From Bacteroidota bacterium (GTDB lineage: Bacteria > Bacteroidota > Bacteroidia > AKYH767-A > JAHEYN01), in assembly GCA_023251555.1 (NCBI GenBank), contig JAHEYN010000017.1, positions 2,693 through 66,692 on the forward strand: a stretch of 64,000 nt of DNA. Reading direction: 5' to 3'. Of the stretch, positions 7,261 to 57,360 are shown in pieces. The translations under genes were made by a program, and so were the position numbers. Position 1 is the stretch's first letter. The number at the start of each line of letters is the position of its first letter. Below the pieces are notes generated by a model. That model had not been told where the DNA came from. It made no database searches and was given only the letters and a program-made list of their open reading frames with translations.

Positions 7261-8675
7261 TTTCTTGGCTTATATGAATTAATCAATTCAATAAATGAGG
7301 GATGATTTTTCAGAACAGGATTATACTCGAACAGCAGGTGATAATTTTCATACGAAAGTTCAAGCGCCATTCCGAGACTCATCATTGCTTCTTTCTGGTT
7401 CCCTGAATCAAACAGGTAGGAAACCATTCTGTAGTAAAACTCCGCCGAAGAAGGAAGGTTGCGTATTCCTTCGGTAAGTACTCCAATGGCTTCATCCAGT
7501 CGCCCTTCTTCTGCCAGGAGATCGGAGTGGTCAAGCCACGCATCAATATTTTCCGGTTCATGTTCAATGACTTTTCTGTATGCCTTCAGCGCTTCTTCAG
7601 GACGCCCCAGAGTGTTTTCCAGTTCCGCAAGCAATTGCCAGAATTCTCCGCGAAATTCTTCCAGCTCAATGGCTTTTCTCACATAATGAAGAGCCTCAAA
7701 GCTCCGGCTTTGGGCATGAAGCGTTATAGCGATTCCATGCCAGGCCTCAGCAAGATCAGGATTGATTTTAGTTGCTTTCTTATAGCAAGACCTTGCCTCA
7801 TCCATTTCGGAAAGCTTTTCATAACACTCCCCGATATTGTAGTATGTTAGTGCGTCCGGTGTTTCAAACTCGAAAGTCTGCTTGTAACAGGCAATTGCAT
7901 CTTCATACCGTTCCATGTTGGCAAGTGCATTGCCCTTGTTGAAATGTGCAATGGAGAAGTCGTATTTTACTAGGAGCGCATAATCGAAAGCTTCAATGGC
8001 TTTTTCATAAAGCCCCATTCCGTTGTATATGTTTCCAAGCACAAACCAGGCAATATGGGAATATGGGCTTTCATCAATAATATTCCTGATCAGGGTTACA
8101 GCTTCTTCAGGCTTTTCAAGTACCTCGTAACAATAAGCAATCTCATGGTAGCATGTTTCATTCTCAGGGTTAATATCCAGCGCCCTCCGGAAAGATGTCA
8201 GGGCTTTCTCAAAATCACCTTTGTTTTCAAGTATAAACCCGAGGTTGATGTGGAGAGGTTCGAGCTCTTCTTCAGATTCAATCATTGAGATGGCTTTCTC
8301 AAGGCACGCTATGGCTTCCTCATACTTTTCCTGCTGGTTGTATACATTGCCTCTTGCTATAAAGATGTCAGGGTCGAAAGGGGTTTCCTGTTCAAGCTTA
8401 TGCAGGATCTGCAGTGAGCCTTCTGTATTTCCCCGGAAAGCCATCACCTGCGCCTGCTTTAAGAGAAGAATATCTGAATTCGGGTGAAGTGTAAGCGCAT
8501 ACTCTATCACCTGGGCGGCATGTTCAGGGTTATTTTTCCCGAAATAATAATCAACGATATCAATAAAAGAGTCTACGTCAAAAAAATACTGATGTTTGTT
8601 TCTCAGCATTTCTTCGTAGCGCTCAATGGTGTGCTTTGTTTCTTCTGACTGGGGGATCTCGTTGTCTTCCTGCAT
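7257..8675 (-). CDS. Tetratricopeptide (TPR) repeat protein, cytoplasmic
   Basis: 472 aa, many 34-aa W-LG-Y-A-F-A-P motifs; its stop overlaps the comA start by 4 bp. Confidence 0.7.
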   Translation of the reverse strand: MQEDNEIPQSEETKHTIERYEEMLRNKHQYFFDVDSFIDIVDYYFGKNNPEHAAQVIEYALTLHPNSDILLLKQAQVMAFRGNTEGSLQILHKLEQETPFDPDIFIARGNVYNQQEKYEEAIACLEKAISMIESEEELEPLHINLGFILENKGDFEKALTSFRRALDINPENETCYHEIAYCYEVLEKPEEAVTLIRNIIDESPYSHIAWFVLGNIYNGMGLYEKAIEAFDYALLVKYDFSIAHFNKGNALANMERYEDAIACYKQTFEFETPDALTYYNIGECYEKLSEMDEARSCYKKATKINPDLAEAWHGIAITLHAQSRSFEALHYVRKAIELEEFRGEFWQLLAELENTLGRPEEALKAYRKVIEHEPENIDAWLDHSDLLAEEGRLDEAIGVLTEGIRNLPSSAEFYYRMVSYLFDSGNQKEAMMSLGMALELSYENYHLLFEYNPVLKNHPSFIELINSYKPRK

Positions 8676-8927
8676 ATGGGTAAAGAATAAAAGTTAATAA
8701 AACATAACTGCTCTCCAAAGATAAAAAAAATAAGGAATCAGTGAACCTAGCCGGGATGAAAAAAACAACCACATATGGGTGCCAAAGGTGAAGAAAATGA
8801 CATATACGGTGTTTTTGAGATATGCGCTGTCTTTTAGCTGATTTCCCCGGGGCTGCGAGGCTATTCAGTATGACAAATGTCATTACCTGGATATCTGGTT
8901 ATACTTAATTTTATTGCTGTAAAAAAT

Positions 8928-10397
8928 ATGAGGGTGATGAATAAAAAATATCTGAGATTTATTTTTATTTTGCTTCTGCCTTTTCTTGGGGTGAATTGTC
9001 GCCGTGATCTCCCTGTAATGGATGGAAGCGGTTACCCTAAGCGTATAGCCAAAATAATCCTGACACAATGCGTGGTTCCCGGATGCCATACGGAAGCGAG
9101 CAGGGAAGGGGCGGGCGGCTTATGCCTTTCAACATGGGATAAACTTTTTGAGGGCGGAATGAATAACTCTTCGGTGATCCCTTTCCGCCCCGATCAGAGT
9201 TTCTTCTTTTTTGCAATCAACACATTCCCGGATCTGGGTCCTTGCCTTAATCCTCCCATGCCTGCAGGCAGATCTTCTCTGGACCGTCAGGATGTTATTC
9301 TGATAAGAGACTGGATTGCGGCGGGTGCCCCGTCCGAAAGCGGGCAGGTAAAGTTTTCAGGGAATCCGGGCAGGAAAAAACTTTATGTTGCAAACCAGGG
9401 CTGCGACCTCGTAACAGTCTTTGATCTTGAAACAAAGCTGGTGATGAGGTGCATAGATGTGGGTAACAGCCCCTCAACGGAATCACCTCATGATATACAG
9501 GTGTCACCCGATGGTCAAAACTGGTATGTATCATTTTTTGCCAATGGAGTATTTCAGAAATACAGTGCTTCCGGTGACGTGAAAACCGGGGAGATTGACC
9601 TTTCAGACCCAAGCTGGCATTCGATGACTATCTCGCCTGATTCCAAATACGCCGTAATAAGTCATCTCGCTTCCGACGGGAAAGTGGCTCTTGTAAGTCT
9701 CAGCGACATGAAACTGGTTGCCAAATACAGCGGGAGCGGACTTTTTGTTTATCCGCACGGGTGCGCTTTTAATAAAAGTTCTTTAATATTTTATACTGTT
9801 TCTCTTCTCGGGAACTTTGTTTATAAAACTGATATCAGCAACCCGGCAGACCCTGTTATATCACAGGTACCCCTTCAGCCGGGCGAAGTTCCATCTCCCT
9901 ATGGACAAGAAAAACCTTATGAGGTGGATTTTACGCCGGACTTCAGCAGATACGTTGTCACATGCCAGGGAACACTCGATGTGCGCATATTTGATGCAGG
10001 TACGGATAGTCTCATGCAATCGATTCCTGCAACAGGAATTCCCCAAACCATGGCTTTTTCGGCTGACAATCATTATGTTTTCGTTACTAACATGGAAGAC
10101 TCTTCTCTTGCAGGAACCCGCAGCTCTGTTGATATTATTGATTTGAAAACAATGAGCAAGGCATTCACTGTATTTCCCGGATACCAGCCCCGCGGTCTCG
10201 CGGTAGATGACGATCACAGGGTGGTTTATATTGCCGATCGCAATGTAACTCCCGCAGGGCCCCAGCCTCATCACACCACTGCATGCAAGGGAAAAAGTGG
10301 ATATATCACTATGCTTGATATGAACACCATGCAGATGATCAGTACGTGGAGAACAGAAGTGTCAGTAGATCCATACAGCATGGCCATAAGGAAGTAG
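8928..10397 (+). CDS. Lipoprotein with an N-terminal PSCyt1-like (Planctomycete cytochrome c-like) domain carrying CX4CH, fused to a YVTN-type beta-propeller
   Basis: Start choice ambiguous (ATG at 8877, 8928 or 8937); signal LLLPFLGVNC; CVVPGCH ... NPPMPAGRSSLDRQDVILIRDWIAAGAP (MPP...L...WI..GA signature); then KKLYVANQGCDLVTVFDLETKLV and further propeller repeats. Confidence 0.6.
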   Translation: MRVMNKKYLRFIFILLLPFLGVNCRRDLPVMDGSGYPKRIAKIILTQCVVPGCHTEASREGAGGLCLSTWDKLFEGGMNNSSVIPFRPDQSFFFFAINTFPDLGPCLNPPMPAGRSSLDRQDVILIRDWIAAGAPSESGQVKFSGNPGRKKLYVANQGCDLVTVFDLETKLVMRCIDVGNSPSTESPHDIQVSPDGQNWYVSFFANGVFQKYSASGDVKTGEIDLSDPSWHSMTISPDSKYAVISHLASDGKVALVSLSDMKLVAKYSGSGLFVYPHGCAFNKSSLIFYTVSLLGNFVYKTDISNPADPVISQVPLQPGEVPSPYGQEKPYEVDFTPDFSRYVVTCQGTLDVRIFDAGTDSLMQSIPATGIPQTMAFSADNHYVFVTNMEDSSLAGTRSSVDIIDLKTMSKAFTVFPGYQPRGLAVDDDHRVVYIADRNVTPAGPQPHHTTACKGKSGYITMLDMNTMQMISTWRTEVSVDPYSMAIRK

Positions 10398-10413
10398 CAG
10401 CCGGCAGAATACT

Positions 10414-12678
10414 TCATTTTGCAATTAAAAATCTGCGGGACAGTTCCCCTTTATTGGTTTTTATTTTCAGAAAATAAAGGCCGGCATCCAGGTGCCTTAC
10501 ATCAACAGTGAACTCTCCGTTGTGAAAAGTTTGGGGAAGGGCAATGGCCCGGCCTGTAATGTCTTCTATGCCAAGCTGCTGAACCTGCAGAAGTGCTGTC
10601 TTGATAAAAAGATATTCAGAGGCAGGGTTGGGATAAAATGATATTTCCTTACCCGTAAATGCTGATTCATATGTCCCCGATATCTGGATGGAATCTTCAA
10701 CTGCCTGAAGGCTGACAGGATTTCCATCTTTATCAATCGCAAGAACAGAGGAGATCGAAAGCTTCAGGACTCCGTTTCCTGTAACGGTAAACAACAGGGT
10801 GGCTGCCAGTCCGTTTCCTGAAATATTTGTATGATCAATCCTTGACAATCCTATGTCAATCTTTCCGGAAGAAGAAAAGTCCTTTTCAAGATGCACGAGG
10901 TTGAAAGCAGGCGTAAGCCAGGAGCCTGTGTAATCCACACTGACTCCCCCCTGCACTAAGGAAGGATCATAATTCACGGAAAAGGCTGCTCCATAAATAT
11001 CAGCCACAGGACTGGCAGGTGTTCCCATCTTAACAGGAACACTAACTACAGTGGCTGCTGCCACAACGCCCGGCGGTACTTCAAAATATAATTCCGGAGT
11101 ACCGGAATATGTTTCACTGAAACTGTTCTTTAAATGAGTCTGTCCGTAATTGAGAGAAACGGCCGTAGTATCGGCCTGGTCAACAGTACCAGTGCCGTCA
11201 CAATCAGCATGTTTCATGTTAACTCCGTTTGTAAACTGTGAACCCCAGTCGGCAGACTGTTGTGCGGTCCAGCTGTTCGATGCCGCGGTACGTGCAGGCC
11301 CCGATGCGTTGTAAGCGATGCCGATATACAAAATATCTTTATTGTCTGCAATCTTGTCATAATTGGCATCTCCGGGCCACACATTAGTAAGCGGAGGGGT
11401 ACATCCGCTCCAGATCCATCCTGAATTATTATTTATGTTCGTGCTGTTTCCTCCCGCATAAAAGGACGCCCCGCCTGCCACATGTATGTCCTGCATATCT
11501 ACATAATCCATACAGACACTGCCTGAAGATTTGCTCAATACAGACTGCGTTCCTGCTGAACTGCTCTGCATTGCAATTGAAAACCCCTGGCTGCCGGTGG
11601 CAAAGAGGTAATCACTGACCGTTTGAGTGTCTGATGCTCCAAGCTGGATAAGATAGCCGGGGTTCATGAACAGGAGAGAGTCAAAAGAATTATTTCCTGA
11701 AACACCTGCGGTATTTGAAAAAATAACTCTGTGAAAAACATTGCTGCCGGACAGTATATTCCCGTCGGCATTGAAGGCTATCTCGTTGAAGCTGTTGTTG
11801 CTTCCGGATATTGTTCCTGTACCTGTGAATGAGACGTTATGAACAATACAATGAGATACTTCAAGGCTTCCTGTTGAAGTAAAGATGACGTCATTATAAG
11901 TATTAAATCCCAAAGTGTCACTGAACGAGGTGCTGCATTTAATATATGCGCTGTCGGCATCAAGCATGGCCGGATATCCATCTACGATCCATGACTGGCA
12001 ATATATATCGGAAACACCCAGATACATGGATGACGTTGAAGAAGAGAATATTTCAAAAATGCCGCATTGTATTGTATGTCCTCCCGTAATAAACTTCCCC
12101 CCCGAGAGTGTTATGTCCGAACATTTCAGCGTATCGGCCAGCGTCCATTCCCCCCCAGGGTTGCTGAATATGAAGTCTGTGTGGGAATAAGAGGCGTTGG
12201 GAAGCAGAATCCCGCTGAGTTTTTTTTCCGAAGTGGAGATGGTGAAAACCCCCGAAGCAGTAAATGAAAGATCTCCCACAAGGCACCAGGACATGTTAGT
12301 TCCCAGGGTGACAGAGCCATATACTTTTATACTCGCATACGGAAGACCATCGTCATTGGCAAGTGCCGGGCTGTTCGATACTCCTGACCAGTCCATATCC
12401 TGGCAGTAAACTTCTGCAGAGTCAATATATACGGTGTCGCCTCCGGATAAAAATGAAGCAGCATTAAAATACACATTGTCGGAAGGGGAGGGGGGCTGGG
12501 AATAAAATGCAATCCCGCCCGGTGAAGTAGCCCAGTGGGAAGCATAGTCATTCCACTTTCCTGTTCCTCCTACCCAGTAAAAGTCGGCAGCCCGAAGAGA
12601 GGATGCATCTCCTGCATAAGCCAGGCAAAGACAAAGCATGTGTTTTACAAATGAGCCGTGTGCGCTGCGGAGTTGCAT
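10414..12678 (-). CDS. Large secreted T9SS cargo protein (beta-helix-like) with type-A C-terminal sorting domain
   Basis: 754 aa; N-terminal signal; ADFYWVGGTGKWND motif; C-terminus ISFYPNPASEYLFIK...DVRHLDAGLYFLKIKTNKGELSRRFLIAK typical of the Por/T9SS CTD. Confidence 0.7.
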   Translation of the reverse strand: MQLRSAHGSFVKHMLCLCLAYAGDASSLRAADFYWVGGTGKWNDYASHWATSPGGIAFYSQPPSPSDNVYFNAASFLSGGDTVYIDSAEVYCQDMDWSGVSNSPALANDDGLPYASIKVYGSVTLGTNMSWCLVGDLSFTASGVFTISTSEKKLSGILLPNASYSHTDFIFSNPGGEWTLADTLKCSDITLSGGKFITGGHTIQCGIFEIFSSSTSSMYLGVSDIYCQSWIVDGYPAMLDADSAYIKCSTSFSDTLGFNTYNDVIFTSTGSLEVSHCIVHNVSFTGTGTISGSNNSFNEIAFNADGNILSGSNVFHRVIFSNTAGVSGNNSFDSLLFMNPGYLIQLGASDTQTVSDYLFATGSQGFSIAMQSSSAGTQSVLSKSSGSVCMDYVDMQDIHVAGGASFYAGGNSTNINNNSGWIWSGCTPPLTNVWPGDANYDKIADNKDILYIGIAYNASGPARTAASNSWTAQQSADWGSQFTNGVNMKHADCDGTGTVDQADTTAVSLNYGQTHLKNSFSETYSGTPELYFEVPPGVVAAATVVSVPVKMGTPASPVADIYGAAFSVNYDPSLVQGGVSVDYTGSWLTPAFNLVHLEKDFSSSGKIDIGLSRIDHTNISGNGLAATLLFTVTGNGVLKLSISSVLAIDKDGNPVSLQAVEDSIQISGTYESAFTGKEISFYPNPASEYLFIKTALLQVQQLGIEDITGRAIALPQTFHNGEFTVDVRHLDAGLYFLKIKTNKGELSRRFLIAK

Positions 12679-48965: not shown

Positions 48966-51335
48966 TCAGAATTTAAAATTCCAGGTTACTGACGGTATAA
49001 CAGGGAAAAGGGATACCTGTTTAGCTTTGAGGTCAAGGGTTCCTTTCTCAAGATTACCAGTGTTTTCAAAATAAATGAAATAAGGATTATGGCGGTTGTA
49101 TACATTATAAACGGAGAGGTTCCATGAGGACTCATAGCGAAGATGTTTTTTCCCTGTATAAGTGATTGAAACATCCATCCTGTGATAAGGATCCATGCGG
49201 AACCAGTTTCTGCCTCCCCACTCCGTGTGTATTTCTCCGTTGATAAAATAGCGGGCCACAGGAAGTGTAATGGCATTCCCTGTTCCATAAACAAAAACGG
49301 ATGAGAATGACCAGTGTGCATTCAGATCGTATGTGGCAATAGCAGACAGGTCGTGTCTTCTGTCATAGCGGGCATAATACTCTTCGCCCAGATTAATTTC
49401 AGGGAACTTTCTTTTTGTCCAGGACAAAGTGTATCCAATCCACCCGTTCAGCTTGCCCGTTCTTTTTTTCAGAAACAGTTCAAGGCCGTATGACCATCCC
49501 TTCCCGAAAGTAAAGCTGTTATCAATGTTATTATTGATATTATCTTCAGGAAGAGAACCTTCTTTATAATCAATCAGGTTTTTCATGTCTTTATAATACA
49601 CTTCGGCTGAGGTCTCATAAATATCTTTGCTGAAATTCCTGAAATATCCGATTGCATACTGCTTCCCGACCTGTGGCTTTATCAACAGGGAGCTTGGCAC
49701 CCATATATCTGTAGGGAGGGTTATGGACGACATTGATGCAAGGTGCATGTATTGGTTATTCATGGTAAATGAAGCTTTTACAGAAGAGAACTCATCAACT
49801 GCATAGCGGAGCGAGATTCTTGGTTCAGGGCCATGATAGGTCTTTATGTTCCGGAAGGGGTCGTAATGAATTGTATCTGTAATTCTGCCGGTAAGGCTAT
49901 CCGTTACAAACCTGTCGTATGGACCGGTATGCTGAAATGCGGAATACCGGATGCCTGCATTGAGCTTAAAACGATCAGAGATGTCAATATCATCTGAAAA
50001 ATAGAGTGCGCCTTCATTGGCATACTGCCGGATAATTTTTTCAGGAGCCAGTTCCACTTCTCCCGACCTGGCAGAAATACTGCTGGGGGTGAACGTGTGA
50101 AAAATATAATTTACACCATACCTGATACTGTGCTTTACGTTTGGATAATAGCTGAAGTCAACCTTGGCATTCCAGTCCCTTATTCCAGAATACAACCGGA
50201 ACTCGAACTTATCCTGCAAGGCTTTCATTTCAAATTTATAATCGCTGAAGAGCGCCATAGCATTCATAAACAGTTTATCGTTAAAAAGGTGATTCCATCT
50301 CAGGGTGGTAGTGGCATTACCCCATGGGATGGAAACACCAAAATCCGATCCTTTGTTTTTAAAACTGAAAACATCTCTGCCGAAATAACCGCTGAGCAGC
50401 AGACGGTCCTTATCGGAAATCCTGTAATTAATCTTTGTGTTGAGGTCATAAAAGAAATACCCTGACCCTTCAAACTCTGATTTTTGAGAAGAAAACAGTT
50501 GGGCTGTTTTTGTAAGAATATCAGCGTATGTTCTCCTGGCAGAAATAATAAACGAAGATGTATCTTTTTTCAAAGGTCCCTGCACCGTAAGCCTGGAGGA
50601 GATCAGCCCGATACCTCCTTCCGCATGATAAGACCGGTTATTCCCTTCTTTCATTGATACATCAAGCACGGAAGCCAGTCTGCCTCCGTAGCTGGCGGGC
50701 ATACCTCCCTTGATGAGCGTCACATTTTTCACTGCGTCGGCATTGAACACCGAGAAAAAACCAAAAAGGTGTGAAGCGTTGTATACCACCGATTCATCCA
50801 GGAGAATAAGATTCTGGTCGGGTCCGCCGCCGCGTACATAATAACCCGCATTACCCTCCCCTGCCGACTGGACTCCCGGCAGGAGCTGTATGGTTTTAAG
50901 AATATCCACCTCACCCATAAAAGCGGGAATTGATTTAATCGTTTCTATGGATATTTCGGTGGTTCCCATTTCTGTTCCTTTCAGATTCTTATCAGCGCGC
51001 TCAGCTTCAATAAGCACTTCCTTTGCCATCATTGACTTACTCATGAGATCTGCGTTAAGCCTGATATTCTTATCAAGAAAAACAGCATATACGGTATCCA
51101 TGAAACCAAGAAATGAAATCCCGATGTGATAAGTTCCTTTTTCAAGTGTAAGAGAGTAAAACCCATACTGGTTGGTAGTGGTTCCCTTCAGTATTTCTTT
51201 CACATAAACATTGGCCCCGATAAGATATTCGCCGCTCCCCGACTCTTTCACATAACCACTCACGGTATATTTTTCCTGGGCGGAAAGAGTATGTATGAGA
51301 AAGAATAGCAAAAAAAACGCGGCGATTTTTTTCAT
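48966..51335 (-). CDS. TonB-dependent outer-membrane receptor with N-terminal carboxypeptidase-regulatory-like domain
   Basis: 789 aa; signal; YTVSGYVKESGSGEYLIGANVYVK (CarbopepD_reg); plug and 22-strand barrel; terminal aromatic F. Confidence 0.75.
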   Translation of the reverse strand: MKKIAAFFLLFFLIHTLSAQEKYTVSGYVKESGSGEYLIGANVYVKEILKGTTTNQYGFYSLTLEKGTYHIGISFLGFMDTVYAVFLDKNIRLNADLMSKSMMAKEVLIEAERADKNLKGTEMGTTEISIETIKSIPAFMGEVDILKTIQLLPGVQSAGEGNAGYYVRGGGPDQNLILLDESVVYNASHLFGFFSVFNADAVKNVTLIKGGMPASYGGRLASVLDVSMKEGNNRSYHAEGGIGLISSRLTVQGPLKKDTSSFIISARRTYADILTKTAQLFSSQKSEFEGSGYFFYDLNTKINYRISDKDRLLLSGYFGRDVFSFKNKGSDFGVSIPWGNATTTLRWNHLFNDKLFMNAMALFSDYKFEMKALQDKFEFRLYSGIRDWNAKVDFSYYPNVKHSIRYGVNYIFHTFTPSSISARSGEVELAPEKIIRQYANEGALYFSDDIDISDRFKLNAGIRYSAFQHTGPYDRFVTDSLTGRITDTIHYDPFRNIKTYHGPEPRISLRYAVDEFSSVKASFTMNNQYMHLASMSSITLPTDIWVPSSLLIKPQVGKQYAIGYFRNFSKDIYETSAEVYYKDMKNLIDYKEGSLPEDNINNNIDNSFTFGKGWSYGLELFLKKRTGKLNGWIGYTLSWTKRKFPEINLGEEYYARYDRRHDLSAIATYDLNAHWSFSSVFVYGTGNAITLPVARYFINGEIHTEWGGRNWFRMDPYHRMDVSITYTGKKHLRYESSWNLSVYNVYNRHNPYFIYFENTGNLEKGTLDLKAKQVSLFPVIPSVTWNFKF

Positions 51336-51449
51336 TTACTGGTAAAAATCTGTTGGGTGCACAAAAATACTTCAATTATGCCAAACACATAAATTCTTTT
51401 ATTTTTGCAGGTGTAAAGAGAATGCTTTGTTAACAAAGAGCATTCCGTT

Positions 51450-51523
51450 CGGGGTGTAGCGCAGCCTGGTAGCGTATCAGCATGGGGTGCTGGTGGTCGT
51501 GGGTTCGAATCCCGCCACCCCGA
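51450..51523 (+). tRNA. tRNA-Pro (anticodon GGG)
   Basis: Acceptor CGGGGTG/CACCCCG, anticodon stem TCAGC/GCTGG with loop ATGGGGT, T-arm GTGGG-TTCGAAT-CCCGC, discriminator A. Confidence 0.8.
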
Positions 51524-51529
51524 CAGAGC

Positions 51530-51587
51530 AATGTGGGTGTGAGTTTTAGCGGAGAGTGAAGCAACGTCCAAAACGCACACCCACATT
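51530..51587 (+). other. 12-bp perfect inverted repeat (AATGTGGGTGTG / CACACCCACATT) enclosing a 34-nt loop, immediately 3' of tRNA-Pro
   Basis: Arms at 51530-51541 and 51576-51587; possibly a processing or termination structure or a small RNA. Confidence 0.4.
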
Positions 51588-52140: not shown

Positions 52141-52154
52141 TTACTGTTTCACCG

Positions 52155-52236
52155 TGCCCGAAGCGAGACTCGAACTCGCAAGCCTTGCGGCATACGCCCC
52201 TCAAACGTACGTGTATACCAATTCCACCATCCGGGC
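52155..52236 (-). tRNA. tRNA-Leu (anticodon GAG)
   Basis: Reverse complement GCCCGGATGGTGGAATTGGTATACACG-TACGT-TTGAGGG-GCGTA-...-GCGAG-TTCGAGT-CTCGC-TTCGGGC-A; long variable arm; G37. Confidence 0.8.
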
Positions 52237-52295: not shown

Positions 52296-53114
52296 GTGAA
52301 AATAAGAACAGAGCGCTTGAGGAAATTTATAAAATACCTGCTACTATTATGTGCTGCGGCCTGGTTCACTTTTTTTGTTTTTCAAAAACTGAACCCGCAG
52401 CTCCGAAAATCAACGGGATCTCCTTTACCGGGTGATGAATTCAATCCCGCCATGGAAAGACTTCAGAGTCTGGATGATTTTATAAGTTATGCCGACAGCG
52501 CTGCCGCCGACTCGGGCTTTTATGCCTTTAACGATAAGGGCGACTACCCTCTGCTCATTTCACGCCTGATAAAATACCGTTTCTATCATGGATTCAGCTA
52601 CTACTCATATTCAGATAATATTATTGCATATCTCGCCGGCAAGCTTTTATGGGATGACTTTGCAGCCATAGTTGTCCCTGATGACATTCTCCGGTTCAAC
52701 AATGCCGCCTGCAGCCAGCAAAGCATTATCTTCATGGAAATTCTAAAGCGGAAGGGATTTTCCGTAAGGAGCGTTTACCTGCGGGGGCATTTCGCTGCCG
52801 AAATCCGCTATAACGGCAAATGGCATTTTTTTGACACCAACCTCGAGCCGAAATTCAGCAGGCTAACGGAGAGGCCCGGCATCGAAGAATTGGTTTTAAA
52901 CAAAGCCATACTTTATGAAGCCTATAAAAGCACGAGGGGAAATGCCATGATTGACAGCATTTTCAGCCAGCACAGGCTTTCCGGTGTTAACAATTTCCCT
53001 GCGCGCAAAATGTATCTTTTCCAGAGAAGCGCTTTTTACTTCTCAACATACGGATGGGTGCTTCTGATCATTATTGCTTTTTATTACAGTTTAAAAATCA
53101 GGAACCGCCAATAA
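52296..53114 (+). CDS. Membrane-anchored transglutaminase-like cysteine-peptidase-fold protein
   Basis: 272 aa; GTG start; N-terminal TM; Cys-His-Asp core NNAACSQQSIIFMEILKRKGFSVRSVYLRGHFAAEIRYNGKWHFFDTN. Confidence 0.45.
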   Translation: MKIRTERLRKFIKYLLLLCAAAWFTFFVFQKLNPQLRKSTGSPLPGDEFNPAMERLQSLDDFISYADSAAADSGFYAFNDKGDYPLLISRLIKYRFYHGFSYYSYSDNIIAYLAGKLLWDDFAAIVVPDDILRFNNAACSQQSIIFMEILKRKGFSVRSVYLRGHFAAEIRYNGKWHFFDTNLEPKFSRLTERPGIEELVLNKAILYEAYKSTRGNAMIDSIFSQHRLSGVNNFPARKMYLFQRSAFYFSTYGWVLLIIIAFYYSLKIRNRQ

Positions 53115-53150: not shown

Positions 53151-53597
53151 TCACTTCGTTACTGTAATTGCGGTACTGGTGACCGTATTGCTTTCATGCC
53201 CTGCACGATCCAACAAGTGAACAGAATATGTAACCGTTTGGGATGAAGATCCGTCTGTAATCCCTGTATTCCGGATGGAGACGGATAAATTCCCCCTGAT
53301 AATAATCCCGGCTCCCTGTGGTGCCAGCTGGGGAATGCGGTATTCATAGGTAACTCCGATACGGTTATCGGTAATAAAAAGATTTTTTACATCCGGGCTA
53401 TCTTCTCCAAGATCTCCGTCGCCATCTTCGTATGAAATGACAAAGACAACAGCTTCCTTATATTCTTTAACGGAAGAAGGAGAAACGCTCTCAAGTTTTA
53501 TTTGAGGAACGTCGCTATAGACGGGGGCATCCTTTTTGCAGGAACCAAGGAGAGTTGCTCCAAGTAGAAGTAAAGCCGGAAAAATAAAAATCTTCAT
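53151..53597 (-). CDS. Hypothetical lipoprotein (last gene of the DUF1501 operon)
   Basis: 148 aa; lipobox LLGSC; start overlaps the upstream gene stop by 4 bp. Confidence 0.6.
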   Translation of the reverse strand: MKIFIFPALLLLGATLLGSCKKDAPVYSDVPQIKLESVSPSSVKEYKEAVVFVISYEDGDGDLGEDSPDVKNLFITDNRIGVTYEYRIPQLAPQGAGIIIRGNLSVSIRNTGITDGSSSQTVTYSVHLLDRAGHESNTVTSTAITVTK

Positions 53598-54514
53598 TGT
53601 ATCTTAAAGGAGTAATATGTTTTGTACCCGGCGGCCGATTCTGCGGAAGGGAATTCTGTATCAGCAGCATGATTTCCATCGTTCACATAATATCTCATAT
53701 ATAGCACATCTCCAACAGAAAAAACAGAAGCATTAACATCTGCAATCCATAAGCTGTACCCGCCCAAAGAAAAATAATAAGCACTGTAAATTGCGGAAGA
53801 GGCGAAATCATTCATCGCATATGAAAGTTTTAATTTATTCACCGTCAGTGCAGAAACGGCAGTGCTGTCGTCTTCCACAACCATTACAATTTTTATTTTT
53901 GAATTTGCGGAGACAATGAAAGGATTATAAAACACACCCCCTACCCTGATGCTGTCTATTCTGTTAAAAGCAGAATCGGTAGCAATATACCCTACCACGA
54001 CTGGTTTTGTATTAGGAAGCGCGGGAGAATTTCCGAACATATCCCTGGCGCCATCCATTATCCATTTATTGATACAATTCATTTCTGAAGCTGACAAAGG
54101 AGAAGAGTATAACGGCATGCGGCCGAGATTGGCATCGTCGGTAGTAAGACGTTCATGAAACCAGGACGCAGCAGTGTCGTAAGGCACTACGCGGTATCTG
54201 AATGCAGAGTCGACAGTATATTTTTTAACGGGATGATAAACGAGGGTAGAATAAGAAGATTGCACTGTGCGGTAATCCGGTTCAAAATGCCCGTCGTGGC
54301 AGCCAGGCATGGCACATTTCACACGAAGAATATTGTAATGTATCCCGACGATAGTATTAGGGTCGGGAGGCTGGGAGCTTCCCCCGCCTGTTCCATAATC
54401 AATTGTATCGTAAGGATTGGGAGGAGGTGCGTCTTTTTTGCAACTATCAGACAAGACGGAAACAACAATACCGGTGAACAGAGCCGGGAGAAGATATCTA
54501 ATTACCCTGCTCAT
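53594..54514 (-). CDS. Lipoprotein with PSCyt1-like (Planctomycete cytochrome c-like) domain, CX4CH motif
   Basis: 306 aa; lipobox LSDSC; CAMPGCHDGHFEP ... LGRMPLYSSPLSASEMNCINKWIMDGARD parallels CVVPGCH ... NPPMPAGRSSLDRQDVILIRDWIAAGAP in the 8928-10397 protein. Confidence 0.55.
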   Translation of the reverse strand: MSRVIRYLLPALFTGIVVSVLSDSCKKDAPPPNPYDTIDYGTGGGSSQPPDPNTIVGIHYNILRVKCAMPGCHDGHFEPDYRTVQSSYSTLVYHPVKKYTVDSAFRYRVVPYDTAASWFHERLTTDDANLGRMPLYSSPLSASEMNCINKWIMDGARDMFGNSPALPNTKPVVVGYIATDSAFNRIDSIRVGGVFYNPFIVSANSKIKIVMVVEDDSTAVSALTVNKLKLSYAMNDFASSAIYSAYYFSLGGYSLWIADVNASVFSVGDVLYMRYYVNDGNHAADTEFPSAESAAGYKTYYSFKIQ

Positions 54515-55839
54515 ATAAAAGCCTGCTGAAGATCGCAGGAGGAGAAGGGTTTAAGGAGCCCGGAGGAGATGTCTCCCTCAAAACCGAGGATATCAGCTAT
54601 TGCAGGAACTATTTCAATACTTTCTCCCGCCACTGCGTTTATAACCTGGTTCTGTTTAACCACTGACGGAGGTCCCGCAACGAGGCAAAAAATATTCCTT
54701 GCATTCTGGTCTCCCCCGGATGCGGGAGCAGTATGGTCAATGGCATATCTTCCGAAGGTATCCACAAGTGTGTTGCTCTGCAGGTTGCGGCCGTGCTCCG
54801 GGGCGACAATAAGTATAGTGTCATTCATCATGCCCGGTGTGCTCTGTATCATATTCCAGAGGTGGGCAACGGCATAATCCGCTTTGCGGAGATTGTTGCA
54901 ATACGCAGTGAAGTTGGAATGGCATATATCCACTCCCTGCATGTTCACGACGAGCAATTCCGGCTTGTATTCCCTGATAATTTCTTCTGCAAAAAAGACA
55001 TTAAACATATCGTTATTCATGGCTGCCCCTGCCCCCCAGGGATCAGCGTATTGGCCCGACATCGCTTTGGAAAACAGTCCTGAGAGATATGCCTGTATGG
55101 ATTCCGAAACAGCCAGGGGATTCACAACGCCTGCCTCTTCAGGGTTGTACTGCCCGGAAAAGTTAGCGTCGAGGAAGCCTCGCAGCCCGGAAGATGAGGC
55201 TTTCTGAGAGGACGAAAAGATTTTCGGTGTTCCGAGAACGGAATATCCATCAACCCCGATAAGGTTTGTAGGTGCAATAAAATTAGCCCCGTACATACTT
55301 CCATACCCGGGGTACCGGCTGTAGTTAAGGGCGGGATAAGGGCCGAGGGTATCTGAGATCCACCATGCATTCAATGCTGCAGGTGAAGGGGTATTGTGTT
55401 TCCTGTAATATTCAAAAACGGTAGGGTGTTCAGGGTGTTCCCTGAGATTCAGGTCGGTGTCTGTGTAAACTCCGGTGATTGCGGCAGTATGCCCGTTGAA
55501 ATGCCCTGTGGGTCCTCCGGCATAACGGAATTCCCTGAAAAGCGTTCCATAATTCTGGAGGGGCATGGGGAGAGGCGATGCCGGGAGGGGCTGTATTCCT
55601 CCAAGGATACCGGGGTTGATATTTTCAGTACCATTGAGGATGTTGGGCATAAGATTGCCTTCCGATTTCTGTGTGGATTCAAAATTACGTACTCCCCCGG
55701 CGTAAAGGCAAAACACTACATGGTTTGCTTTCCTTGCGCCTGAAGCGGCAAACAGGCGGCCCGACGGAAGGATATAGGGAGCTATAAAAGAACCGGCTGC
55801 TGCAAGCCCCGTGGATCTTATGAATGTGCGTCTTTTCAT
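54511..55839 (-). CDS. DUF1501 family protein (Tat-exported, sulfatase / alkaline-phosphatase-like fold)
   Basis: 442 aa; twin-arginine signal MKRRTFIRSTGLAAAGSFIAP; VVFCLYAGGVRNFES fits the DUF1501 GG-S/x-x-D block. Confidence 0.6.
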   Translation of the reverse strand: MKRRTFIRSTGLAAAGSFIAPYILPSGRLFAASGARKANHVVFCLYAGGVRNFESTQKSEGNLMPNILNGTENINPGILGGIQPLPASPLPMPLQNYGTLFREFRYAGGPTGHFNGHTAAITGVYTDTDLNLREHPEHPTVFEYYRKHNTPSPAALNAWWISDTLGPYPALNYSRYPGYGSMYGANFIAPTNLIGVDGYSVLGTPKIFSSSQKASSSGLRGFLDANFSGQYNPEEAGVVNPLAVSESIQAYLSGLFSKAMSGQYADPWGAGAAMNNDMFNVFFAEEIIREYKPELLVVNMQGVDICHSNFTAYCNNLRKADYAVAHLWNMIQSTPGMMNDTILIVAPEHGRNLQSNTLVDTFGRYAIDHTAPASGGDQNARNIFCLVAGPPSVVKQNQVINAVAGESIEIVPAIADILGFEGDISSGLLKPFSSCDLQQAFI

Positions 55840-55842
55840 AGC

Positions 55843-56349
55843 TCAGTAATATCTGTATTCATTTGAAGTAAGGAAAGAGTAATAAACGAGCTCAGGAGTA
55901 ACGGACGTATCTGATTTAATAAGATTTGTAACGAACCATTTCTCATACTCATTGGGAGAACGATTATAAAATTTTTTATACGTGTCTGAAACAAACTTGC
56001 CCACATCCGCCGTCATGGATGCTTTTGCCGGCACCTGGGGCGGAGGGGTTGTCCTGTTCAGAAAATTACGGATTACCATATCTTCAATAAGCTTGCGGTC
56101 GCCGAAAGAGGAATATGCCGTTGAGAGCTTTACCAGATCCGCATTACTGATAGATGTGCCGAAAATATCCGCATATGCAATTGAAATAAACTCCGTAGTT
56201 GTTTTGACATTGGGCTTAAGGCTTCCTTCCTGGGAAACAGTCACATCCTTTACTCCATACACATAACTTTTTTCTTTACGGCAGGATGTAACGGCAGGAA
56301 GGATGAGAAGTAGCGAAAATGTGCAGGCAGACAGAATTTTATTGTACAT
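55843..56349 (-). CDS. Hypothetical lipoprotein, paralog A
   Basis: 168 aa; lipobox AVTSC; FYNRSPNEYEK core and C-terminal FLTSNEYRYY shared with the upstream gene. Confidence 0.55.
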   Translation of the reverse strand: MYNKILSACTFSLLLILPAVTSCRKEKSYVYGVKDVTVSQEGSLKPNVKTTTEFISIAYADIFGTSISNADLVKLSTAYSSFGDRKLIEDMVIRNFLNRTTPPPQVPAKASMTADVGKFVSDTYKKFYNRSPNEYEKWFVTNLIKSDTSVTPELVYYSFLTSNEYRYY

Positions 56350-56358
56350 GGGGAAAGT

Positions 56359-57225
56359 TTATTTTATGCCGGCATATTCATCCGAGGAGAGAATTTTTTT
56401 CTGCAATCCTTCATAGCTGCCGGAAGATTTATACAGAGCTGTGCATTCCGATATCTCCGTTGATCCGGGCAGGCGGAAGAGATACCTGGAGTACAGATCT
56501 CTCACCTGGCCTTCGAGGTAATCGGCGGAGGCAAAGAATATGGAGAGGAAATCCTTTTTCCCAACCCCGGCCTGGAAGAACACGGAGGCGTTGAACCCGT
56601 CCACCATCCGGCTTGCGGATTGGAGCTCGGCATCAGTAGGGTATCTGTAAAGAAAATGCTGCCACATGGAAACCACGAAGTTGGCGGTTCCCATATTTAT
56701 CTGGTCATAGAAATAATTGTTCACACATCTCCCGTACAGTTCTTTTTCGTCTATGGTTCCGTCCTTAAGCCCTGCAGGCACAGCACGTAAATCATTCAGT
56801 CTTGTGATTTCATTTCCTAGCAGGTCCCATATCACGAAATAACTGCTGTCCTGAAGGAGTACCTGGAAAACAGCTATCATCTGAGCGATCTCGTTTGTAT
56901 CCTGGTCATTGAGGAGATCAATTCTTGCAATGGAGTACAGGTGCTCCCTGTATTCCGGTTTCATGAAAACAGTATCGAGGATTTCCCGGCGGTCGGCTCC
57001 GGAGAAATTGTTTTTACCGGCAATCAGCATACACTGCTGAAACTCTCCGGCAGCAGGCTTCCGCCCCAGAATGCTGATAAATACTTTGTTGATATACGAT
57101 TCCTTAAGGGAGGCAGGAATGGTTTTGTCAGGCGGAGGAGTGTTGCCGGAAATAACGACTTCTTCGTATTTCTTACATCCGGAAAAAAGAAGGATGAGTG
57201 AGAGATATAATAGAGTTATATGCAT
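56359..57225 (-). CDS. Hypothetical lipoprotein, paralog B
   Basis: Lipobox LLFSGC from the ATG at 57225 (ORF track extends to a GTG at 57237); FLYRYPTDAEL core and C-terminal ILSSDEYAGIK. Confidence 0.55.
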   Translation of the reverse strand: MHITLLYLSLILLFSGCKKYEEVVISGNTPPPDKTIPASLKESYINKVFISILGRKPAAGEFQQCMLIAGKNNFSGADRREILDTVFMKPEYREHLYSIARIDLLNDQDTNEIAQMIAVFQVLLQDSSYFVIWDLLGNEITRLNDLRAVPAGLKDGTIDEKELYGRCVNNYFYDQINMGTANFVVSMWQHFLYRYPTDAELQSASRMVDGFNASVFFQAGVGKKDFLSIFFASADYLEGQVRDLYSRYLFRLPGSTEISECTALYKSSGSYEGLQKKILSSDEYAGIK

Positions 57226-57360
57226 GGGGGGAAGCACTGATGGGGAATTAGAAATTCAAATATATGAAAATATACAAAGCGCAATAATTTACACGGATGC
57301 ATGGATAGACCGGATCTTTGTATCAAATTGCTGCCTGGATTCTTCCCCCCACTCCCACTC

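Follow-up and report, generated by a model that had tools for sequence, protein, structure and literature searches.

What do four small lipoproteins do around a single exported phosphatase-fold protein, and what does a cytochrome-like domain add to such an assembly? This question is raised by five tightly packed minus-strand genes in a 64,000-nucleotide stretch of DNA (the window) from a Bacteroidota bacterium (GenBank assembly GCA_023251555.1, contig JAHEYN010000017.1, positions 2,693 to 66,692 of the forward strand). We refer to the genes, in the order in which they follow one another, as B, A, AP, C and E; AP encodes the phosphatase-fold protein AP442, which carries a twin-arginine translocation (Tat) signal, and the other four encode predicted lipoproteins, of which C (C306) is the cytochrome-like one. 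We consider it slightly better than an even bet, with a probability of about 0.55, that this cassette specifies an envelope complex, a split and lipid-anchored Bacteroidia counterpart of the 'DUF1501 + PSCyt/PSD' module of the Planctomycetes-Verrucomicrobia-Chlamydiae (PVC) superphylum, and that the complex acts as a redox-linked metalloenzyme.

In the open reading frame (ORF) translations of the window, gene B lies at 56359-57237 (292 aa from a GTG; the public gene call starts at an ATG at 57225 and gives 288 aa), A at 55843-56349 (168 aa), AP at 54511-55839 (442 aa), C at 53594-54514 (306 aa) and E at 53151-53597 (148 aa). Reading frames overlap by 4 bp at 53594-53597 and 54511-54514, and the remaining gaps are 3 bp and 9 bp. 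An earlier description of the window made from the letters alone (the sequence-only reading) had reported these five minus-strand genes with their overlaps and gaps, and all its coordinates are exact; the motifs that it quoted (MKRRTFIRS, CAMPGCH, RMP, INKWIMDGA, FLYRYPTD/FYNRSPNE and LSSDEY/LTSNEY) are all found in the translations.

The cassette is an autonomous, conserved five-gene unit. Relatives of AP442 occur in 508 species-representative genomes in a scan of one genome per species, and in the best 80 loci (57-68% AP442 identity), searched for the five genes by tblastn, the order and orientation B-A-AP-C-E is kept in 80 of 80. AP is present in 80 of these loci, C in 78, A and E in 77 each and B in 75, with genes missing only at contig ends, and the median intergenic distances across related loci range from -4 to +13 bp. 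One copy of the cassette per genome locus was seen. The earlier proposal that the five genes belong together is thus borne out by neighbourhood conservation and tight spacing. Database searches returned more than 1380 homologues of AP442 (all from Bacteroidota metagenome bins), 770 of C306 and 342 of B. Since curated families claim none of the five proteins, one might suspect that unrelated small ORFs have come together by chance or that the genes were mis-called; these numbers of homologues and the perfect synteny at such divergence already refute this, and its probability is negligible.

None of the window's flanking genes recurs beside the cassette in the 80 loci, so the glycan-modification locus and the tRNA gene nearby, which the sequence-only reading had mentioned as neighbours, carry no functional information. 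Among the recurrent neighbours in the same loci there is no phosphate transporter or Pho-type gene, no SusC/SusD-like or porin partner and no maturase gene. The best candidate for a conserved sixth gene, an M20-like peptidase upstream, was rejected: it is found in only 25 of the 80 loci and probably reflects lineage synteny.

AP442 begins with MKRRTFIRS, and the pattern RRxF[LIV] is present in 76 of 80 orthologues; a lipobox and a type IX sorting domain are both absent. A profile of its family recovered only 790 relatives from 1.84 billion representative sequences. At E <= 1, the close relatives match Phosphodiest (4 of 25), DUF1501 (4 of 25) and TAT_signal (8 of 25), and the Pfam matches among 45 distant relatives are to Sulfatase (PF00884; 26), Phosphodiest (21), Metalloenzyme (20) and DUF1501 (7). 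Compared with the Protein Data Bank (PDB), a broad alignment of the family (A8) matched first an S1_8 sulfatase (2.4e-9), then cofactor-independent phosphoglycerate mutase (iPGM; 8e-6), as well as choline sulfatase, phosphonate monoester hydrolase, LtaS and nucleotide pyrophosphatase/phosphodiesterase (NPP), all these matches being confined to the C-terminal half that is shared superfamily-wide. PDB matches to aIF2-beta and Rb, returned by single-sequence and narrow-profile searches, were discarded as spurious; the broader alignment was needed.

In the alignment with iPGM, D304-x2-H307, E348-H349-G-R and D368-H369 of AP442 coincide with the motifs D-x3-H, D-H and H, which we take to be the Mn ligands of the mutase, and D304, H307, E348, H349 and H369 are therefore the putative metal ligands of AP442. 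G123, P139, G180, D277, P293, D304, H307, G350, R351 and H369 are invariant in the family down to 21% identity, and G48, G49, R51 and H113 are shared by no less than 90% of its sequences. At the position, located by sequence alignment, of the metal-binding Asp on the first strand of NPP-type enzymes, AP442 reads GGVR, with Gly for Asp. No conserved Ser, Thr or Cys nucleophile was found in the clade-wide alignment, T111 being kept only in the close family. AP442 thus resembles the solved enzymes of the alkaline-phosphatase superfamily in its C-terminal half and its D-x2/3-H, [DE]-H-G and H motifs, and differs from them in an N-terminal half that does not align and in that neither the first-strand Asp nor a Ser, Thr or formylglycine nucleophile is evident. 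By these alignments AP442 is a member of the superfamily, and is neither a formylglycine sulfatase nor a canonical NPP.

The relation of AP442 to DUF1501 is real but transitive. The sequence-only reading had named it a DUF1501 protein, and the Tat signal and the superfamily held up, while the Pfam model itself (PF07394) gives AP442 only 11.5 bits against a cut-off of 27 (E 0.16, a single 60-residue stretch). The link runs through intermediate relatives: the AP442 profile finds the full-length Tat-signal proteins P0413, P0414 and P0422 at E 5.5e-39 to 2.6e-34 (P0414 9e-39; P0422 2.6e-34), and DUF1501 is the top Pfam match of all three, P0414 (28.0 bits) and P0422 (28.6 bits) lying just above the cut-off and the P0422 match covering model positions 41-317 of 390.

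The same reading had also called AP442 sulfatase-like, a label that proved misleading. A formylglycine-type sulfatase system for sulfated glycans, tied to the adjoining glycan-modification locus, would fit the leading S1_8 match and the frequency of Sulfatase among the distant relatives, the likeness of the C306 beta-sandwich to carbohydrate-binding and immunoglobulin (Ig) modules, and the glycosyltransferase and methyltransferase genes upstream. The formylglycine motif C/S-x-P-x-R, however, is found in the expected region in 0 of 80 orthologues, the sulfatase matches fall only in the superfamily-wide half, the glycan genes never stand beside the cassette elsewhere, and no maturase gene recurs; we regard such a system as very improbable.

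An ordinary phosphate-scavenging operon deserves more weight. In that case AP442 would be an NPP-type secreted phosphodiesterase or phosphatase, the lipoproteins would tether it or bind substrate, and the cytochrome-like domain would be a haem-free relic. PF01663 (NPP / type I phosphodiesterase), or the name 'alkaline phosphatase family' or 'type I phosphodiesterase', is attached to some close homologues, the Phosphodiest matches given above point the same way, and Tat export of phosphatases has precedent in PhoD and PhoX. Against this, the NPP-type first-strand Asp is Gly, the Thr at the nucleophile-like position is lost outside the close family, and no phosphate transporter or Pho-type gene recurs as a neighbour. 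AP442 itself does not fall in PF01663, the window protein having no match and the first-strand Asp being absent.

One further stretch of AP442 stands out. Directly after the Tat hydrophobic core, at residues 21-36 (55720-55779, minus strand), it reads PYILPSGRLFAA.G.R; all of 25 family members at about 60-68% identity have this stretch unchanged, and in relatives at 30-40% identity it can still be recognised. Such conservation is unusual for a cleaved signal peptide, and the stretch may serve in docking or belong to the mature protein.

The cytochrome-like partner, C306, consists of a signal with lipobox Cys25, a PSCyt1-type cytochrome-c-like domain (residues about 55-155, 54050..54352, minus strand), in which C67-x4-C72-H73 lies at 54296-54316 and is followed by an invariant M133-P134, and an Ig/FN3/CBM-like beta-sandwich (residues about 172-305, 53600..54001, minus strand). 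Conventional annotation is silent here: 0 of 770 homologues carry a Pfam domain, no Pfam cytochrome family matches C306 or 39 relatives (PSCyt1, PF07635, 0 of 40 even at E <= 10), and a profile of the full length was of no use against either Pfam or PDB sequences. Within the family, the lipid-anchor residue C25 and C67, C72, H73, D74, G75, F77, E78, P79, M133, P134, W151, I152, G155 and A156 are invariant. C-x4-CH is present in 76 of 78 orthologues and CxxCH in 0 of 78.

Domain-level comparisons were more informative. An AlphaFold2 model of C306 (mean pLDDT 85.6) begins with a signal helix, followed by a helical domain at 55-153 and a beta-sandwich at 172-305, and residues 47-168 modelled alone reach pLDDT 88.9 and pTM 0.85. 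The domain profile gave nine weak PDB matches, and 9 of 9 are cytochrome c6, aligned over the Met-Pro ... WI..GA segment; CA--ACH of C306 aligns to cytochrome c6 with a two-residue gap. The profile also matches both PSCyt1 domains of a protein (81 bits on PF07635) from L093, a locus of the sister clade described below, with an hmmsearch E of 1.8e-7, and hhalign gives 92.7% and E 4e-7 over 75 columns (the VVPG..S.L...MP...L..EE...WI..GA block). The profiles and the model thus predict a cytochrome c fold of the PSCyt1 kind. The PSCyt1-like domain of the sequence-only reading stands at the level of profile homology; the Pfam model and a canonical haem motif do not support it. Plain HMM placement of AP442 and C306, the check that this reading had itself named as able to refute it, turned out against it.

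The top structural match of the domain is FoxE, an iron-oxidising cytochrome. The periplasmic c-type cytochromes FoxE (5mab) and PccH (4rlr) are alike to C306 at fold level only, and differ from it in having CxxCH, no lipid anchor, no Ig domain and another genomic context. The beta-sandwich resembles the carbohydrate-binding and Ig modules of glycoside hydrolases. From the invariant C67, C72, H73 and M133 we infer that C306 is a putative monohaem c-type cytochrome. The departure of C-x4-CH from the canonical haem motif favours the haem-free relic of a phosphate-scavenging operon, but the invariant Cys, Cys, His, Met and Pro of the domain are hard to explain without haem.

The window encodes a second lipoprotein with a domain of this kind, at 8928-10394 (plus strand). 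Its signal ends in ...LLPFLGVNC, and its N-terminal cytochrome-like domain, which the C306 domain profile matches at E 2e-5, contains CVVPGCH (C-x4-CH), PPMP and IRDWIAAGA and is fused to a 7-bladed beta-propeller (Lactonase/NHL matches). The arrangement parallels 'PSCyt1/WD40' and 'multihaem/LVIVD' partners, and the neighbouring genes encode a TPR protein and a ComA-like phosphosulfolactate synthase.

The remaining subunits are small. A lipobox-type Cys after a hydrophobic stretch was found in 72 of 74 B, 76 of 77 A, 75 of 78 C and 76 of 76 E orthologues, and the anchor Cys is invariant in the C, A and E families and near-invariant in the B family; by signal and lipobox Cys, all four are predicted lipoproteins. 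B appears helical, with three Y..hLGR.P...E repeats of the DUF4214 / phycobilisome-linker type and an invariant NNYFYDQINMG block, and A has one clear DUF4214-type repeat and a conserved C-terminal MTSxEYRYY. At E <= 1, DUF4214 (PF13946) matches 41 of 41 B-family members (best 2e-9), PBS_linker 9 of 41 and PSCyt2 (PF07583) 2 of 41, and many database homologues of B are already annotated with PF13946; PSD1 (PF07587) matches 19 of 41 (best E 5e-4), all below threshold and over the last 26 model positions only. DUF4214 likewise matches 36 of 39 A orthologues (best 2.9e-6), and the window copies score 13.5 bits (B) and 15.1 bits (A) against a cut-off of 23.2. The B profile also finds phycobilisome linker proteins in the PDB (E 0.004-0.04). 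On these matches A and B appear to be helical lipoproteins of the DUF4214 / phycobilisome-linker type.

A and B had been described as paralogues. Their profiles share one 39-column DUF4214-type block (hhalign 85%, E 6e-6), whereas BLASTP of A against B is not significant, so that by sequence the two have a repeat type in common and are not full-length paralogues. No match to DUF1800 at E <= 1 was obtained for A, B, 39 A-family or 41 B-family members.

E has only weak Ig-like Pfam matches and is probably an Ig-like beta-sandwich; it carries an invariant, calcium-loop-like Y-x-D-G-D-G-D-L-G-E-N loop and a DRAG..SN motif. Paralogues of E of about 183 aa with the same ..F.D.NGD.. loop region (profile matches E 1e-13 to 1e-19) sit 1.3-3.9 kb downstream of the cassette at L005:12094-12645, L024:14018-14566 and 10 other loci; none was seen in the window.

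The sequence that follows the anchor Cys bears on where these lipoproteins reside. A motif of the K-(D/E)2 type, defined elsewhere as a lipoprotein export signal (LES; PMC5080379), follows the anchor Cys in 40 of 76 E, 32 of 75 C, 19 of 72 B and 3 of 76 A orthologues. Such counts would suit a surface-exposed complex of C and E, possibly joined by B, whose ligand would be a polymer or mineral outside the cell, with AP442 separate in the periplasm and the operon reflecting a shared pathway and not one complex; the Ig/CBM-like domain of C, the probable beta-sandwich of E and FoxE as top structural match would agree with it. The window copies (CKKDAP, CKKYEE and CRKEKS) and about half of the orthologues, however, are without the signal, as are nearly all A orthologues, no SusC/SusD-like or porin partner recurs in the 80 loci, and AP442 lacks a lipobox and a type IX sorting domain. 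We consider this arrangement distinctly doubtful.

The role of the cytochrome can be approached from a more distant group of loci. A scan of metagenomes with the DUF1501-borderline relatives of AP442 yielded 13 loci of a sister clade (L082-L094), whose AP genes score 321-387 bits with the A8 profile. There, the phosphatase-fold gene of every long locus is followed immediately by one for a protein of 994-1151 aa with 10-11 CxxCH motifs (Cytochrome_C7/c3, MtrC-like) and LVIVD repeats. In L090 and L086, 2 of about 8 long loci, a single protein of 545-614 aa is encoded directly before the phosphatase-fold gene; its middle corresponds to B positions 146-262 (E 2e-8), its C-terminus to the whole of mature A including the terminal S.EY.YY (E 1e-9), and it includes a PKD-like segment. 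The L086 protein scores 30.2 bits on DUF4214 and 28.4 on PSCyt2 (cut-off 29.8), and PBS_linker also matched. Neither an E homologue nor a lipoprotein anchor was detected in the sister-clade loci. An apparent 1436-aa phosphatase-fold/cytochrome fusion in L088 was set aside: its first 392 residues are not AP-like and represent an out-of-frame upstream extension of the cytochrome ORF.

The order of helical partner, phosphatase-fold protein and cytochrome is thus the same in the cassette and in the sister clade; the two differ in that A and B form one polypeptide there and that the cytochrome there has 10-11 CxxCH motifs and a beta-propeller. Since this order recurs at deep divergence, it lends independent support to a joint function of the three components, and a phosphatase-fold gene adjoining a 10-11-haem cytochrome fits poorly with phosphate scavenging. 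Taking this together with the haem-type residues of C306 and the altered active site of AP442, we judge a plain scavenging operon rather unlikely.

Other genes were seen around the sister-clade modules. In L093, B12-binding radical-SAM, thioredoxin-domain and two-domain PSCyt1-TPR proteins (L093:372-2306, 8098-9609 and 9642-11920) flank the phosphatase-fold/multihaem pair. Shortly upstream of the module, two loci (L085:5518-7041 and L088:5197-7059) encode a hybrid PAS histidine kinase / response regulator that could regulate it.

How does the cassette compare with systems already described? The pairing of DUF1800 with DUF1501 genes is a statement of the sequence-only reading; such pairs would occur in Proteobacteria and other groups. 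Like them, the cassette has a helical partner upstream of a Tat-signal phosphatase-fold protein; DUF1800 proteins were reported to resemble the phycobilisome linker ApcE (PMC12981691), and B likewise resembles phycobilisome linkers. Unlike them, it has a cytochrome subunit, and its A and B families show no DUF1800 match. In the PVC superphylum, DUF1501 genes are most strongly associated with PSCyt1/PSCyt2/PSD1 proteins, their function is not known, and the module was described as membrane-targeted and possibly electron-transferring (Kamneva et al. 2012, PMC3542564); such modules occur in Planctomycetota, Verrucomicrobiota and Lentisphaerota (PMC3542564; He et al. 2017, PMC5615132).

The resemblance to these function-unknown PVC modules, already pointed out in the sequence-only reading, is supported (PMC3542564, PMC5615132). 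Both systems place a Tat-signal protein of the alkaline-phosphatase clan beside a PSCyt1-type cytochrome domain and a helical LGR.P..E region, both have Ig/carbohydrate-binding-like modules on the cytochrome protein, and both are tightly conserved. The differences are equally clear: the partner is four small lipoproteins here and one giant PSCyt1-PSCyt2-PSD1 protein in PVC, the motif is C-x4-CH here and CxxCH there, there is an extra subunit E and a Bacteroidia host, and one copy per genome locus contrasts with the many copies reported per PVC genome. No cassette component passes the DUF1501, PSCyt1, PSCyt2 or PSD1 Pfam models. By its parts and their order, as far as profiles can tell, the cassette is a variant of the PVC-type module, but formally it lies outside each of these Pfam families.

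Taking into consideration (i) the invariant haem-type residues of C306 and (ii) the multihaem partners in the sister clade, we think a redox-linked reaction more likely than plain phosphate scavenging, with a substrate that resembles a phospho- or sulfo-ester or is a metal oxyanion. AP442 would be loaded with a metal of the Mn or Fe type in the cytoplasm and then exported by Tat in its folded state; its nearest solved relatives by 'Metalloenzyme' motifs are Mn enzymes. In the periplasm it would dock onto the helical lipoproteins A and B, which could serve as a tether or scaffold at the membrane. Monohaem C would have as its partner in electron exchange either the metal centre of AP442 or the substrate or product of that protein, and the Ig-like modules of C and E may be spacers or binding modules. 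The complex is most simply placed in the periplasm, since haem is attached there and AP442 lacks both a lipobox and a sorting domain.

Several observations weigh against this proposal. None of the five window proteins passes a Pfam or NCBIfam gathering cut-off, NCBIfam giving nothing for any of them, so all family links are remote or transitive. The proteins that bridge AP442 to DUF1501 also pass or approach Phosphodiest and Sulfatase (P0414 passes Phosphodiest), which makes the link one to the edge of the clan that is not specific to DUF1501. AP442 might be non-catalytic, since it shows neither the first-strand Asp nor an obvious nucleophile; C-x4-CH is, as a sequence motif, non-canonical for haem; and the LES-like motifs may mean that some subunits are surface-exposed, away from periplasmic AP442. 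Finally, co-transcription of the five genes as one operon is inferred from their spacing as the sole basis.

A bolder and, in our estimate, rather improbable idea is that AP442 is no hydrolase at all. It would then be the catalytic part of a periplasmic oxidoreductase of a new kind, in which an alkaline-phosphatase scaffold, exported by Tat, holds a Mn/Fe centre and trades electrons with c-type cytochromes dedicated to it, a monohaem C-x4-CH protein here and a deca- or undeca-haem one in the sister clade. If true, the hundreds of DUF1501/PSCyt pairs of planctomycetes would have the same explanation.

As for the surroundings of the cassette in the window, TAnnTTTG is the Bacteroidota -7 promoter consensus, and a candidate box of this type, TAtaTTTG, lies at 57257..57264 (minus strand), 20-32 nt upstream of the two possible starts of gene B. 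As a consensus match only, it fits a promoter of the cassette's own. A scan for sigma-70 promoters and terminators gave no signal above shuffled expectation, the sigma-70 model being one that does not apply to Bacteroidota promoters. Upstream of the cassette are flippase-like, asparagine-synthase-like, methyltransferase and glycosyltransferase genes. On the other side, tRNA-Leu(gag) at 52154-52236 is about 0.9 kb away, with a 272-aa ORF (52296-53114, plus strand) in between; this ORF has hydrophobic segments at both its N- and C-terminal ends and converges on the cassette, the stop codons being 36 bp apart, and it has no Pfam match and is not conserved beside the cassette in related loci. An 84-aa ORF at 51332-51586 (minus strand), antisense over tRNA-Pro(ggg) at 51450-51524 (plus strand), is almost certainly spurious.

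Few unexplained gene families of Planctomycetota and Verrucomicrobiota are as large as the DUF1501/PSCyt/PSD modules, which have been without an assigned function since 2004-2012. The cassette extends the same three-part logic, a helical partner, a Tat phosphatase-fold protein and a c-type cytochrome, beyond the PVC superphylum to at least 508 species-level Bacteroidia genomes. The fusion of A and B and the exchange of a monohaem for a multihaem protein in the sister clade are independent genomic evidence for a functional cytochrome link, and the conserved C-x4-CH raises the question of how it is handled by the system II haem lyases of Bacteroidota. As a minimal form of the module, the cassette offers separate proteins of 148-442 aa that lend themselves to expression, purification and modelling far better than the giant PVC proteins. 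It brings no new principle, but it gives clean, minimal and widely distributed access to a long-standing question.

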